Positions 16,146-20,670 are shown, counted from the first letter of the stretch. The stretch: DNA of 32,000 nt from an archaeon (GCA_024275415.1 JAJRZD010000099.1:1-32000); one strand, 5' to 3'. The notes: generated by a model from the sequence alone, not told the origin. Made by a program: numbers and translations.

Positions 16146-17759
16146 TTATCTGTAGCTCTCCATAGATTCTAACCAACTGGCTGGTTTCTCTTTGAGGGGC
16201 TTCCATTTTCCCAACTTCTCATCCCAAAAGTCCAACCAGTCCACGAGCCTCCAATGCCCCCAAATCCTATTTCCTACCAGTTGGATTGATGGATATGGTT
16301 CTATTGGTTCTACCGCTATCGAGAATGCATAGATTCCTCCCTTGGGTAACCTGATTCTCATAAAGAGATTTTCATCTTTATCATAATCGATGAATGTCCT
16401 CGGAAGCCGTAATCCAAGTGCTGAAACACATTCTCCAGCGTTCTTGTCAGTTGTGTATACGATGCATTCCTCCACAAGCCCGATATGATGAACCTCGTAT
16501 CTTTTCACAATTACGTTTTCAGTACGCAGTCTTCTCATCCTGTTAGCAATAGTACTTATCCTCAAACCAAGAACTCTCTGTAGCTGTCGAATGGTCTTGT
16601 TCCCTCGTTCAAACTCTGAAAGAATCTTGATATCAATTCTATCTAGATTCCTCACATCCGAGAATTCCGAAAATGTCATCTCGGGGTATATCTTAGCAAG
16701 GGCATCTCTTTGCATCATCGATGCTTCCATTCTGATGCTATCCCAATCGATTTCCCACTTGCCTAGTGAGGGCACATAGTCAGTCAGGTTCAGGTTATTG
16801 CTTGCCTTGTACCGTTCGAAAACAAACGCATTTACACCATCACGCGCAGCAGTTTCCTTCATCATATTAAGATATGCAAGGTTTCTCGGGTTGTCAGGGA
16901 TACAAAGAGTTGCGAGCACTCCCTTTCCTCTTGTTAGAAGTGATGCCCTTGAGAATATGAAGGGACACCCCTTGAGAAGGTACCAGCAATCCGTAATACC
17001 AGTTCTTTCTGGTGTGAGAGCTACTTGGAAAACCCGAATTCCAATTTTCGCATAGGAAACAAATTCGTATTCGTATAACTGTTCTTTTTCTTTTAGTATC
17101 CTACGCGTTTCACTAATCCACTTCTTTGTAATTCCTGTTCTTTTATTGACCGTTTCAATGCTTGCATACGGTTCTCTCACTAGCGTATCTATGATGGCAA
17201 TCTCTGTTGAATTGATAGGTTGTTCATACTCCGTGGAATATCTTATCAAGAAGTATGCCCAGTCCTGAATTTCCAATCGGATGCCGTGACGTTCCATCTT
17301 AGCAAGTCGCCTGACAAGTCCATCCAAAGCCTGTTCCCTACCAAGATTCCAGAGAAGATTGAAGAATACTCTAGGACGATAACGAATTCCTGATGGAAGT
17401 TGTTCATCTGGACTCTCTCGAACCCAGATCTCAGTCCAATGATCCTTTTCATTTTTGGATAATACCTGTCTTCCGTATTCATATGCCAAATCTCTTCGGG
17501 CTCGCTCATCACTGATAGACGCTGGCAATGCATATTGCATAATCTCTCGTGCAACCACTGCTTTGGAGAATAGATCTGAAAAATCTACGTGTTTATGATA
17601 TAATAGCGAAGTTCCTGTAAAACGAATAGTATCCGTAAATGAATTGGAAGATGGCACATCGTCTTCTATGATCTCCACATTCTCCAACGGGATATGCAAT
17701 CCAAATCTCTTCTTAATATCCTCTACAATCTCGTGAAGAATCCCATCAATGATAGTCAT
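16146..17759 (-). CDS. Large tandem Lrp/AsnC-like wHTH regulator with uncharacterised N-terminal domain
   Basis: Two HTH-like segments (STEIAIIDTL...SIETVNKRTGITKKWISETRRIL; DRIDIKILSEF...TIRQLQRVLGLRISTIANRMRRL). Each is followed by (KI/HI)G(I/L) and an ACT/RAM-like stretch ending in LGKW. Confidence 0.7.
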   Translation of the reverse strand: MTIIDGILHEIVEDIKKRFGLHIPLENVEIIEDDVPSSNSFTDTIRFTGTSLLYHKHVDFSDLFSKAVVAREIMQYALPASISDERARRDLAYEYGRQVLSKNEKDHWTEIWVRESPDEQLPSGIRYRPRVFFNLLWNLGREQALDGLVRRLAKMERHGIRLEIQDWAYFLIRYSTEYEQPINSTEIAIIDTLVREPYASIETVNKRTGITKKWISETRRILKEKEQLYEYEFVSYAKIGIRVFQVALTPERTGITDCWYLLKGCPFIFSRASLLTRGKGVLATLCIPDNPRNLAYLNMMKETAARDGVNAFVFERYKASNNLNLTDYVPSLGKWEIDWDSIRMEASMMQRDALAKIYPEMTFSEFSDVRNLDRIDIKILSEFERGNKTIRQLQRVLGLRISTIANRMRRLRTENVIVKRYEVHHIGLVEECIVYTTDKNAGECVSALGLRLPRTFIDYDKDENLFMRIRLPKGGIYAFSIAVEPIEPYPSIQLVGNRIWGHWRLVDWLDFWDEKLGKWKPLKEKPASWLESMESYR

Positions 17760-17782
17760 TAGGGGTACTCCATTATTCTATG

Positions 17783-18424
17783 CTACTTTTTCTTTTTCCA
17801 GTAGCCTGCAGCTCTCAATACTATTCGTCCAAGGTCAGTAATGCATAGTATATTACCATCCCTCTCTCTTCTCTTTGTAATATACCTCGCTTTTTCTAAC
17901 TCGTTCACATGACCGCTGATAGTGCTAGCGCCTAACTCCGCTCTACTTCCCAGTCTTTTCTGGAGGATGCATCCGTCTTTTTCTTTATTGATTATCCCAA
18001 GTATGTTCTTTTTTGGCAACGTAAGCATCATTCTCTTTATTGGTTGTAACTCAACCACTCCCTGAACATCATTCTTTTCCCCCCTGACCAAATAAACTGG
18101 CGAATTTGAGAAAGCGCCAGCCATATGGAGTGCTACCGTCATGACTCTCGTGCCGAGAGACGCATTAAAGCTAAGGTCGTATTTTCGATATTTGTATGCA
18201 ACCTCTAAGGCTGTCGCTAGGACATCCTGGTAGTCCCACGGATTTACCTCTTTCAAACACACTGGCATCTGACCACCAATATCTTCTTTGATCATCTCCG
18301 CATTTTCTTTTGATTGACTGCTGTGTAAAATAACCAACTTGTCCCACTTTCTCTTGAAAAGCACGAACTTTAGTCTCTCAGGTTCGTATTTGCCCATCGT
18401 TGCGATTTGAACTCGTTCGGCCAT
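17783..18424 (-). CDS. csa3: CARF-wHTH transcriptional regulator (Csa3/DUF6293-like)
   Basis: N-terminal Rossmann-like RVQIATMG...DKLVILHS, CARF motif NASLGTRVM, C-terminal wHTH (QKRLGSRAELGASTISGHVNELEKARYI...ITDLG). Adjacent to the cmr operon. Confidence 0.75.
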   Translation of the reverse strand: MAERVQIATMGKYEPERLKFVLFKRKWDKLVILHSSQSKENAEMIKEDIGGQMPVCLKEVNPWDYQDVLATALEVAYKYRKYDLSFNASLGTRVMTVALHMAGAFSNSPVYLVRGEKNDVQGVVELQPIKRMMLTLPKKNILGIINKEKDGCILQKRLGSRAELGASTISGHVNELEKARYITKRRERDGNILCITDLGRIVLRAAGYWKKKK

Positions 18425-18526
18425 CCCACCAGCTCCGGTTCTTGTTATCCATTATTCGGCATTTTTTCCGTAATTCGGATTCCCAGTCGCAGTTCGAATC
18501 TGCTGTTTTCTCTGTTTTCGGGTCTA

Positions 18527-18549
18527 TCCTTGTTTGAATCAAACAAGGA
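18527..18549. promoter_or_regulatory. Perfect 23-bp palindrome (operator or RNA hairpin)
   Basis: TCCTTGTTTGA-A-TCAAACAAGGA: 11-bp arms around a 1-nt centre. Confidence 0.6.
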
Positions 18550-18558
18550 GGTGGTATA

Positions 18559-18594
18559 GTGATTCCTGGAGAACCCGAAGATCCCCCTTGGTAA
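18559..18594 (+). CDS. Putative 11-aa mini-ORF MIPGEPEDPPW
   Basis: AAGGAGGTGG (18545-18554), then TATA, then GTG ATT CCT GGA GAA CCC GAA GAT CCC CCT TGG TAA. Strongest SD seen in the window, at optimal spacing. Confidence 0.55.
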   Translation: MIPGEPEDPPW

Positions 18595-18603
18595 CCCAAG
18601 GGG
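18584..18603 (+). other. GC-rich hairpin with the mini-ORF stop codon in its loop
   Basis: CCCCTTGG-TAAC-CCAAGGGG, 8-bp perfect stem. Confidence 0.7.
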
Positions 18604-18606
18604 CAA

Positions 18607-18641
18607 GGGCCGTAGGCGCTGGTCTACGGTCCCCCTTTTTT
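18607..18641 (+). terminator. Terminator-like stem-loop followed by T6
   Basis: GGGCCGTAGG/TCTACGGTCC 10-bp stem (2 G-U pairs), followed by CCC and TTTTTT (18636-18641). Confidence 0.65.
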
Positions 18642-18823
18642 CTGTTTCAATCTACAACTTATCCGTTCTGCTAATTCAGTACCTCTGGTATCAAATCCCT
18701 AGTAAAATGTGTTTCTGGTTCAACAATGTTACCCGATTTTGCATGAAATGACTGACTCTCCTGATTCTCCCGCGTAATCGTACGTGAAACCATATTTTTG
18801 CATGTGAATTCGCGTGGCAATTT

Positions 18824-18841
18824 GAAAACGTCATCTTATAT
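18824..18841 (+). promoter_or_regulatory. Putative BRE-TATA promoter of the csx1-cmr operon
   Basis: GAAAACGTCATCTTATAT, about 100 nt upstream of csx1 and very similar to the cas6 promoter motif. Confidence 0.55.
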
Positions 18842-18924
18842 ACTCCTATTATTCCATGTACCTTGAGGGTAATACATAACCCCAGCTTGGCATTAAGACG
18901 GCTGGGGGGGAGTCCCCTTAAGGA

Positions 18925-20670
18925 GTGAGAAGTTGCCAATTGAAGATTCTCATGACTACAATCGGAAGAATGGATCGATACGAAAGTATCGAGTATTTGA
19001 TGGACGAGGAAGGAACCAATTCATGGAAAGGAAAAGTAGCTGGTATAGCAGCCTGCAAAATCATTGGCGGGTTTGATAAGATATTGGTCTTCTACACATC
19101 TGAAACGGAACAATGGATTGAAGAATACCGCAAGATTTGTCTGGATAATGAATTGCCAAATCCTGTCTTCAAGAAGATCCCTTCCGGAAATGATTCTCGA
19201 GAACAAATGCAAGTCGTAGATACTGTCATCGATTCTGTCCTTGAGATAACACACGGTGTGGAATCAGCATTCCTAACAATCGATATTACTCCCGGATACC
19301 GCCTCTTGCCGTTACTCTACTTTGCAGGGGTCAGTTTTCTCACCAGTTTTCACAAATCGACTCTCGAAAAAGTAATCTATTCAGAGGTAAACCGAAAGGA
19401 GAAGACGGGAACAATCCGAGATGTCACTTCCTCCTTTGAAGTGATTGAGTGGTATCATGCAGCTCTTACCTTTGCAAAGACTGACAATGTCGAAGGTCTT
19501 CTTGCACTAGTAGAACGTCGAAGGGACGAGCTTCGATTGGCCGGAGAGGATTTCAAGGACATTGACAATATACGAAAGGGACTGTGTGGACTTTCTGGAT
19601 ATTCAACAGCAGCTTTGCCACTTGAACTTGGTATCAGATCCTACTCGGTCAAAAAATTGCTGGATAGTGTCAAAGAATCTCCCTCGTCGTTGCCACTGTT
19701 CAAGCATCTTTTTGATGCAGTTCGTGAAATTGTAAACAATTGCACCATTGATTTTGCAACAAAAAAAGTTTCCATTCCGCTAACATTAGATGAGATAAAG
19801 CGACAGAAATACATTATTCAACGAGCACTCGATCATGGCCATATCACCAATGCTCTAACAATGTTACGTGAAACCTTTCTGAATGCGGCATTACTCGAGT
19901 TTAATCCCGCAAATTGGCTCTCCCGACAGTCGTTTCGGCAGGTCGTGACACAGAGATTAGGTGCTCTTGCAAGGAGAAGTACTGACTCGTATTTGGCAAA
20001 GAACCTATCAATGCAGGAGATACAAATTGGAAAGCTTTGGGATCAACTCACGCAAGCCAGAAACAAGGTGGCGCACTGCGGGTATTCCAATGATACCATC
20101 GACATAAATGACCTTAATTCTAAGGCGTTTGAAATACTTCAAGGTCTCGAGAAACTTGACTTCTCCAACATATGGATTTCTCAGGATAGTGGGTGCAAGT
20201 TACTTGTCAGTCCTTTGGGACGGTCGAAAGGAGCACTATTCTCTGCACTAAGACACATCTCTCCTGATAGCGTACTTGTCCTGACTTCTCGGGAAACTTC
20301 ACCAACATTGAAGGAGGTCTTGAGGAATGCAGGTTTTCCGTTTGAGAAATCCAAGAGGGAAGAGCTTGACAATCCTTACACAGGATTTGATGAACGGCAA
20401 ACAATCTCCACTAAATGGAGGGAGTTTCTTTCGGCACACCAGGAAGTCTTCGTGAATGTGGTAGGTGGAACTACCTTGATGGGCGAGATAGCGCGTACCA
20501 TAGGACGAGAAGCCATTGGACTTGGGATTCCTACTACTGTCTTTGCCTGTGTTGATTCTAGGGATTACGAGAGCCAACAAAGAGAACCCTATGTTGTGGG
20601 AGAGTATGTAGAGATTGAAAGATGGCCAGACTCGATAGGAGCTGAGGAAGATGAAGAAAACCACGATTGA
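18925..20670 (+). CDS. csx1: Csx1-like (TIGR02221/TM1812-type) CARF-HEPN RNase with an extra C-terminal CARF-like domain
   Basis: KILMTTIG, IDITPGYRLLPL (DxTHG-like), LPLELG, HEPN RNKVAH (20059-20076), then a second Rossmann-like domain LLVSPLGRSKGALFSAL...NVVGGT. The real start may be TTG 18940. Confidence 0.88.
   Translation: MRSCQLKILMTTIGRMDRYESIEYLMDEEGTNSWKGKVAGIAACKIIGGFDKILVFYTSETEQWIEEYRKICLDNELPNPVFKKIPSGNDSREQMQVVDTVIDSVLEITHGVESAFLTIDITPGYRLLPLLYFAGVSFLTSFHKSTLEKVIYSEVNRKEKTGTIRDVTSSFEVIEWYHAALTFAKTDNVEGLLALVERRRDELRLAGEDFKDIDNIRKGLCGLSGYSTAALPLELGIRSYSVKKLLDSVKESPSSLPLFKHLFDAVREIVNNCTIDFATKKVSIPLTLDEIKRQKYIIQRALDHGHITNALTMLRETFLNAALLEFNPANWLSRQSFRQVVTQRLGALARRSTDSYLAKNLSMQEIQIGKLWDQLTQARNKVAHCGYSNDTIDINDLNSKAFEILQGLEKLDFSNIWISQDSGCKLLVSPLGRSKGALFSALRHISPDSVLVLTSRETSPTLKEVLRNAGFPFEKSKREELDNPYTGFDERQTISTKWREFLSAHQEVFVNVVGGTTLMGEIARTIGREAIGLGIPTTVFACVDSRDYESQQREPYVVGEYVEIERWPDSIGAEEDEENHD

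Follow-up and report, generated by a model that had tools for sequence, protein, structure and literature searches.

A predicted micropeptide gene divergent from csa3-like regulators, conserved in a mostly CRISPR-associated module of Thorarchaeota

Results

Features of the locus

A small element, made up of three hairpins, a Shine-Dalgarno (SD) sequence and a very short open reading frame (ORF), lies in the window, as we call the whole 32-kb stretch of archaeal DNA analysed here. It is flanked by a divergent csa3-like regulator gene on its left and, on its right and on the + strand, by the gene for Csx1 (CARF-HEPN-CARF; PADLOC 6e-85) and then by a cmr operon. The features are listed in Table 1.

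Table 1. The element and its neighbours on the csa3-like side, with positions counted from the first letter of the window
Feature	Position	Strand	Description
537-aa protein, third member of the module	16146-17759	-	N-terminal helical domain and two Lrp/AsnC-like wHTH+RAM modules
Csa3-like CARF-wHTH regulator	17783-18424	-	213 aa; divergent partner of the small ORF
Shared divergent control region (putative operator/promoter)	18425-18526	.	between the csa3-like start and the small transcript; repeated TTCGG/CCGAA/TTCGAA half-sites
Pyrimidine motif CTGCTGTTTTCTCTG	18500-18514		within the shared control region
Hairpin 1	18527-18549	+	10-bp stem, 3-nt loop; -11.8 kcal/mol, z -4.8
SD AAGGAGGTGG	18545-18554	+	GGAGG core 7 nt ahead of GTG
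Micropeptide gene	18559-18594	+	GTG start at 18559; MIPGEPEDPPW (11 codons); TAA 18592-18594
Hairpin 2	18584-18603	+	18584-18591 paired with 18596-18603, 8 bp, TAA in loop; -14.4 kcal/mol, z -3.0
Hairpin 3 and T6	18607-18641	+	11 pairs at 18607-18632, T6 18636-18641; -20.4 kcal/mol, z -4.7

The SD-masking hairpin, the GTG-initiated mini-ORF, the hairpin with the stop codon in its loop and the hairpin followed by T6, all reported in a first-pass annotation of this DNA, were found in place on direct reading. The 3' arm of hairpin 1 overlaps AAGGA, the first five bases, that is the 5' half, of the SD, and the stem of hairpin 2 pairs the final codons to sequence 3' of the stop. Not one of 200 dinucleotide shuffles folded as well as any of the three hairpins, and the whole 161 nt has a folding z of -3.75; all three stems were recovered by an inverted-repeat finder, and hairpin 3 with its T run was independently picked up by a terminator scan. 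Stable hairpins are predicted on both strands at the element. In archaea the usual termination signal is an oligo-T run and not a hairpin; hairpin 3 with T6 is likely to be the 3' end of the small transcript. An SD of the same type and spacing stands ahead of cas10, cmr3, cmr5 and cmr6 in the cmr operon of the window, so the organism does use such sites; the 3' end of the 16S rRNA is missing from this MAG. The element is present as a single copy in its own genome, and an Rfam scan of 17500-19500, with E up to 10, returned chance-level matches only and no family.

The 213-aa product of the divergent gene, the start of which lies 134 nt from the small ORF across a 134-bp intergenic region, has both hallmarks of Csa3-like proteins, an N-terminal CARF-like domain and a C-terminal winged helix: Pfam HFX_2341_N covers residues 4-117 and MarR_2 residues 134-188, and PADLOC reports CARF3 at 6.6e-24. 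HFX_2341 is a repressor of cas genes (PMC11434293). The AF2 model of the 537-aa protein has a pLDDT of 90, and in Foldseek it is most similar to NirDL (tandem Lrp-like) and to Lrp/FFRP regulators. CARF and Lrp-type RAM modules are both ligand-binding folds. The family of the 537-aa protein (91 representatives, E below 1e-30) features many invariant Trp residues, including those of a Trp-rich C-terminal tail; distant members, with no csa3 neighbour, adjoin unrelated genes, and no ORF of the kind described here was found beside them. The genome carries at least six CRISPR arrays (contigs C6, C29, C63, C98 and C113), with three repeat types of 37, 30 and 31 nt, none of them inside the 32-kb window with the cmr operon.

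Conservation of the micropeptide

A nucleotide search of the intergenic DNA against 40 related genomes gave nothing beyond 20-nt chance matches. Each contig encoding one of the nearest Csa3-like proteins (55-65% identical) has the unit where the window has it and in the same direction: an SD, a start codon (GTG or ATG) and a frame reading I-P-G-[ED]-P-E-[DE]-P-P-[WY]-stop. When the 86 genomes of the family were scanned less strictly, further copies emerged whose N-termini are longer, for instance MAFETHYQFPGEPQDPPW, MKLRNSPGDPEDPPW and MSIAIAYTWPDEPEDPPW. Sixteen more distant csa3-like loci (31-42% identity) were also surveyed, by listing every short ORF reading away from csa3: 15 of them feature a divergent ORF, 110-160 nt from the csa3 start, ending in one of the two cores described below. 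Altogether, 22 distinct versions were found, all within one Thorarchaeota (Asgard) family; the close Csa3-like homologues are likewise labelled Candidatus Thorarchaeota. Conservation of the frame in related genomes, which had been named as a check on the mini-ORF, thus proved to be wide.

Scans of larger collections of contigs returned practically nothing else. The exact, GTG-anchored pattern had no match in genome contigs, where a looser core pattern found a single Thorarchaeota MAG; metagenome contigs gave one high-GC chance match, within a coding frame, and viral contigs four matches, all within longer unrelated frames. From this MAG and the labels of the close Csa3-like homologues, the source of the window is an Asgard archaeon.

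The peptides are 11 to 28 aa long and fall into two types. Type A (14 sequences) has the core P-x-x-P-E-D-P-P-W and ends in ...P-E-D-P-P-W, as in MSFNFKTWPDGPEDPPW; type B (8 sequences) has the core P-P-E-D-P-E-W-P-W and ends in ...P-E-[DE]-P-[ED]-W-P-W, as in MVTLHPPEDPEWPW. Conservation is confined to the C-terminal 9-11 residues, the length of the N-terminal part being free; the core is acidic, and in the 11-residue form just two residues stand ahead of it. Pro-Pro-Trp is found near the ORF end in all 14 type A peptides (in one of them as PPY) and is replaced by W-P-W in all 8 of type B, one of which has no Pro-Pro at all. Seven peptides run for 2-9 residues beyond the W.

Substitutions are concentrated at third codon positions. 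Over the nine core codons of type A, the first, second and third codon positions have 2, 4 and 9 variable columns and 59, 114 and 520 pairwise differences, and 388 codon pairs are synonymous against 167 non-synonymous; for type B the corresponding figures are 4, 3 and 7 variable columns, and 34, 27 and 147 differences. Identity is 79% in the core and 30-42% in the flanking 30 nt. Since third-position substitutions dominate and all three stops, TAA, TAG and TGA, are used in the family, sequence comparison shows the peptide to be under purifying selection and the frame to be a real gene. A frame kept in 22 distinct loci with such a codon-position pattern is more than a chance occurrence.

A three-gene module

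Eighteen loci extend far enough downstream of the csa3-like gene to show what follows it, and in 17 of them the small ORF, the divergent csa3-like gene and a gene for a Lrp-like protein of about 540 aa occur together. In the tree of Csa3-like proteins, type B loci form one clade (support 100/100), and the subclade of the window, A1, characterized by a short peptide, an SD and a masking hairpin, is a clade inside type A (97/97). By this tree, peptide type tracks the phylogeny of the regulator. Several genomes have two or three modules; in G018 and G021 there is one of each type.

The control regions differ between the two types. In type A loci the TTCGG/CCGAA/TTCGAA half-sites are again found 50-110 nt ahead of the small ORF; in most type B loci their place is taken by GCAACTT/CAACTT. 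We infer that these half-sites are putative operator or promoter elements. At least 12 of the 22 loci have a motif resembling CTGTTTCC. The L051 locus (G021:C63) has a peculiar arrangement: the small ORF lies about 1.5 kb from the csa3-like gene, against 110-160 nt elsewhere, and four tandem copies of a unit of about 19 nt (CCCGTAGTACGCCCTTGAA-like), located about 20-110 nt upstream of the ORF, replace the CCGAA/TTCGG half-sites.

What lies on the other side of the small ORF varies. Type A modules adjoin csx1, cmr or SAVED genes in the window, L038, L045, L061, L063 and L068, and cas6 in L058. Six type B modules adjoin a csa1-cas6-cas3 operon (type I-A genes by Pfam). No cas genes were found in the flanks examined of the G392/G393 lineage, L062 and L057. 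Whatever lies downstream, the comparison of loci shows that the small ORF stays in place, and in the same orientation, with respect to csa3. On these grounds micropeptide, Csa3-like protein and Lrp-like protein of about 540 aa make up a conserved, mostly CRISPR-associated module of Thorarchaeota, bound to no single CRISPR type. One of two earlier readings, by which the element is a small peptide or RNA in its own right and linked to the divergent regulators, is supported by this synteny, the ORF travelling with the pair of regulator genes regardless of the gene downstream.

In type B loci L056, L059, L060, L064, L066 and L067 the small ORF is convergent with csa1-cas6-cas3, the csa1 stop being about 100-150 nt from the start of the small ORF; at so short a distance, the intervening hairpin and T run may terminate both units. 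A conserved block further downstream in type B corresponds to the 3' end of the convergent csa1. Strings resembling CTAGTTCA in the type B 3' regions were considered as a possible tRNA, and ARAGORN found none.

Ahead of csx1 are a TATA-like box (TTATATAC / TTATATGC) and a GGGGGGAG-like G-rich stretch (18840-18925 in the window). Both are kept in L038 (3470-3600) and in L039 (3440-3560); their retention in L039, where neither csx1 nor cmr genes follow, suggests loss of the operon from that locus.

RNA features across loci

In all six A1 loci a stem covers either the SD or the start codon, and no two of these stems share a sequence: the SD is masked in the window, L038 and L037, and the start codon is masked by a 10-bp stem in L039, L042 and L045. 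As the stems over the ribosome binding site (RBS) differ in sequence, a role at the RNA level is favoured over that of a conserved palindrome bound by a protein. GGAGGTG is invariant in the six loci, where the peptide is cut to two residues plus the core. Most of the distant members start with ATG without an SD and have a conserved GAT at -7 to -5, so the strong SD with its mask is an innovation of the subclade of the window. The SD, whose conservation had been proposed as a further check, is therefore kept, together with its masking hairpin, in the six nearest loci, and is missing from most other members. In L018-L027, L033-L035, L046 and L050 the ATG, again without an SD, is preceded by a conserved (C/T)(C/T)GAT at -9 to -5, and no canonical TATA box was found at a suitable distance in these loci.

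In most loci the stop is followed, at a distance of about 40-120 nt, by a GC-rich hairpin with a T5-T8 run 3' of it. Covariation, suggested earlier as a way to check the stems, was found for this terminal hairpin: 11 of the 28 pairs predicted by folding the alignment show double changes preserving pairing, nearly all of them in this stem. Hairpin 2 shows compensatory changes in L038 (CCCCATGG/CCATGGGG) and L037, and recurs in some distant loci. As a family-wide feature, the stop-spanning hairpin was rejected, pairing within a locus being no better than pairing across loci (Wilcoxon p 0.5).

Discussion

Taken together, the comparisons indicate that the element is a stand-alone small gene, with a predicted structured transcript of roughly 115-130 nt, encoding an acidic peptide of 11 residues rich in Pro and Trp. 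Several known systems resemble it in part.

CreT RNA toxins, described in Haloarcula hispanica, Halobacterium hubeiense and Pseudomonas aeruginosa, are small transcripts from within cas loci or next to them; each combines an SD, or another start that works efficiently, with a mini-ORF of few codons, closely followed by a stable GC hairpin. They act via their codons (rare Arg or Ile, or two Pro), and Cascade, directed by a repeat-like CreA RNA, represses them. The P. aeruginosa 'proline-codon toxin' was shown in a 2026 preprint to need the SD, a mini-ORF ending in Pro-Pro-stop and the GC hairpin, and it arrests translation. The first-pass statement that no described CRISPR element has this architecture was accordingly too strong, SD, mini-ORF and hairpin being all present in CreT, in one case with Pro-Pro-stop. 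The likeness of the window to CreT (SD, GTG, 11 codons, hairpins) holds, however, for the A1 subclade only. Moreover, the peptide is here kept through synonymous codon change, and there is no convincing CreA, only a 16/19 likeness to one repeat, with no second target.

The AZIN1/ODC-homologue uCC (PPW) and the MAGDIS uORF likewise combine a short coding region, C-terminal conservation and an eIF5A-dependent Pro-Pro-Trp pause. These are, however, eukaryotic uORFs (that of AZIN1/ODC being in cis to a main ORF of the polyamine pathway), while here there is no main ORF, CRISPR regulators or cas genes adjoin and type B lacks PP-W. The bacterial leader peptides TnaC, SecM and ErmCL control a downstream gene on the same transcript, via alternative structures or Rho access. 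They share with the element a short peptide conserved near the C-terminus at the amino-acid level, and hairpins around the stop; in contrast, the downstream genes are here variable or convergent, and no conserved alternative pairing was found.

A different resemblance is offered by Rgg/SHP and ComR/ComS, where a tiny ORF also lies head-to-head with a transcription factor at a short fixed distance (here 110-160 nt in 15 of the 16 distant loci). In these systems the C-terminal 7-9 residues are the active ones, Trp residues serve as anchors (double-Trp in XIP), and a single genome can hold paralogous pairs whose peptides differ; the peptides are hydrophobic, exported, processed and re-imported, and the receptors are of the TPR type. 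The peptide described here is instead acidic, in its 11-residue form it is too short for an export leader, and its partners are a CARF-wHTH and a Lrp-like protein.

The element thus fails a defining feature of each of its nearest counterparts, CreT, the PPW-type uORFs and the bacterial peptide-regulator pairs. The main text of the HFX_2341 paper, which contains neither 'upstream' nor 'divergent', describes no such neighbouring ORF, and none was found by full-text searches beside Csa3/HFX_2341 regulators or in Asgard CRISPR loci, Csa3 having been sought together with Asgard terms only. From its conservation and gene context, we regard the element as a new CRISPR-associated gene family, a predicted gene for a small regulatory peptide, linked to that of a transcription factor, for which no earlier description was found.

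As to its function, we tentatively favour a free peptide acting as a trans partner of its cognate regulators. One or both regulators would bind the repeated half-sites of the 134-bp control region, setting both divergent units; the RBS-masking hairpin would gate translation of the small mRNA; the peptide would then act in trans on its own regulator pair, for instance as an anti-repressor or as a co-factor for the RAM or CARF modules, and provide a feedback or timing step in CRISPR regulation. Such a role is suggested by the fixed head-to-head geometry with the csa3-like gene, by the agreement of peptide type with both regulator tree and operator type, by paralogous modules with different peptides in one genome, and by the ligand-binding folds of the partners. 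On the other hand, the agreement with the regulator tree may reflect shared descent only, and we know of no archaeal precedent for an unprocessed cytoplasmic peptide of 11 residues acting on a transcription factor.

Two further properties fit as well or better the idea that the act of translation is what matters: the composition (P, G, D, E and W) is the make-up of stall motifs dependent on eIF5A/EF-P, and a strong SD locked in a hairpin resembles the control of a harmful product. According to this idea, which is possible but on the whole unlikely, a P/G/D/E-rich DPP-W core in need of aIF5A would pause or trap ribosomes; the estimate covers both its modes, a growth-arrest toxin under the control of the regulators, analogous to CreT, and a sensor of aIF5A or polyamine status. 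The literature bears out the premise of the first-pass annotation that PPW is a strong stalling triplet: it is prominent among EF-P/eIF5A-dependent pauses (PMC8705083) and serves as the polyamine sensor of the AZIN1 uCC (PMC2811004). The window element shares the three parts of CreT (SD, mini-ORF and GC hairpin), and its RBS is masked as in tightly controlled toxin mRNAs. A conserved C-terminus with a free N-terminal length, such as is found in this family, is also typical of arrest peptides.

The variation within the family is less easily reconciled with a ribosome-directed function. With W-P-W in the place of PP-W in type B, and residues after the W in seven peptides, stalling exactly at PPW-stop, as initially envisaged, is not a family-wide mechanism; one member is devoid of any Pro-Pro, and the SD is absent from most members. 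A mechanism based purely on proline codons would leave the conservation of acidic residues and Trp unexplained, and no gene that could be regulated in cis lies downstream.

In a more specific and distinctly improbable version, a cOA-sensing Csa3-like transcription factor would drive an RBS-gated mRNA, whose aIF5A-demanding DPP-W peptide would trap ribosomes, forming a dormancy or translation-status switch attached to CRISPR-Cas. If true, this would be a counterpart of CreT toxins driven by a transcription factor, peptide-specific and regulated by protein, in the closest archaeal relatives of eukaryotes, and the DPP-W pause would be the same as in the eukaryotic AZIN1 polyamine sensor.

The other reading originally put forward was that of an attenuator-like leader, in which translation of the mini-ORF, or stalling on it, sets read-through of hairpin 3 and T6 into csx1-cmr. 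The element does lie 290 nt upstream of csx1, on the same strand, in the window and in L038, csx1 or cmr genes are also found downstream of it in L045, L061 and L068, and the stop-spanning hairpin adjoins a terminator-like one. In the G392/G393 lineage, however, the ORF, the SD hairpin and the 3' hairpins are intact with neither cmr nor csx1 downstream, and the six type B ORFs convergent with csa1 cannot lead any gene. In addition, a TATA-like box (about 18846-18853), kept in L038 and L039, separates the T run from csx1, no conserved alternative (anti-terminator) pairing opposes hairpin 3, and the stop-spanning hairpin is not common to the family. Because the downstream gene varies, csx1 has a TATA-like box of its own and type B ORFs are convergent, synteny largely refutes a leader of csx1-cmr, a role that we now consider very improbable.

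A true CreTA module, in which the mini-ORF RNA would act as CreT toxin and a CRISPR-repeat-like CreA RNA, encoded on the opposite strand, as its repressor, is similarly remote. Besides the architecture of SD, mini-ORF and hairpin, it could account for a repeat-like sequence on the minus strand at 18532-18550, within hairpin 1 and the SD, which agrees at 16 of 19 positions with the 3' end of a CRISPR repeat of the same genome, an agreement reached by only 5 of 2000 block shuffles. The repeat belongs to array C63:38039-38861, and 10 exact bases, the 8-nt tag ATTCAAAC among them, are part of the match. Yet no second site matches the would-be pseudo-spacer, the intergenic region of G392/G393 has no repeat-like multi-copy match in its own genomes, and the stems at the position of hairpin 1 differ in sequence among loci; conservation at the amino-acid level is not a property of CreT, and the constant partner is here a pair of protein regulators. 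A CreTA module is, by these comparisons, unlikely.

Finally, a non-coding structured RNA or a chance ORF, with the frame incidental to a conserved RNA or DNA element, would agree with the stable hairpins on both strands and with hairpin 1 being a perfect DNA palindrome, able in principle to bind a dimeric regulator, and has practically no chance of being right, being already refuted, as far as sequence comparison goes, by a type A core variable at all nine third positions against 2 first and 4 second ones, by the excess of synonymous codon pairs, by a frame and stop kept in 22 loci despite diverged flanks, and by a palindrome whose sequence is not conserved.

To our knowledge, regulation of CRISPR systems by Csa3-type CARF transcription factors is known only as an affair of protein, DNA and cOA. 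A third, peptide-coding component would have been missed because gene callers rarely report such short ORFs. The 11-residue peptide can be synthesised, its two putative partners are soluble proteins, and it provides a natural PPW-type sequence for asking whether archaea regulate via aIF5A-dependent pausing. The component is kept across at least a dozen genera of the Thorarchaeota family, beside both type III-B and type I-A loci, and this breadth points to an unrecognised layer in the way in which Asgard archaea may control, or exploit, their CRISPR systems.
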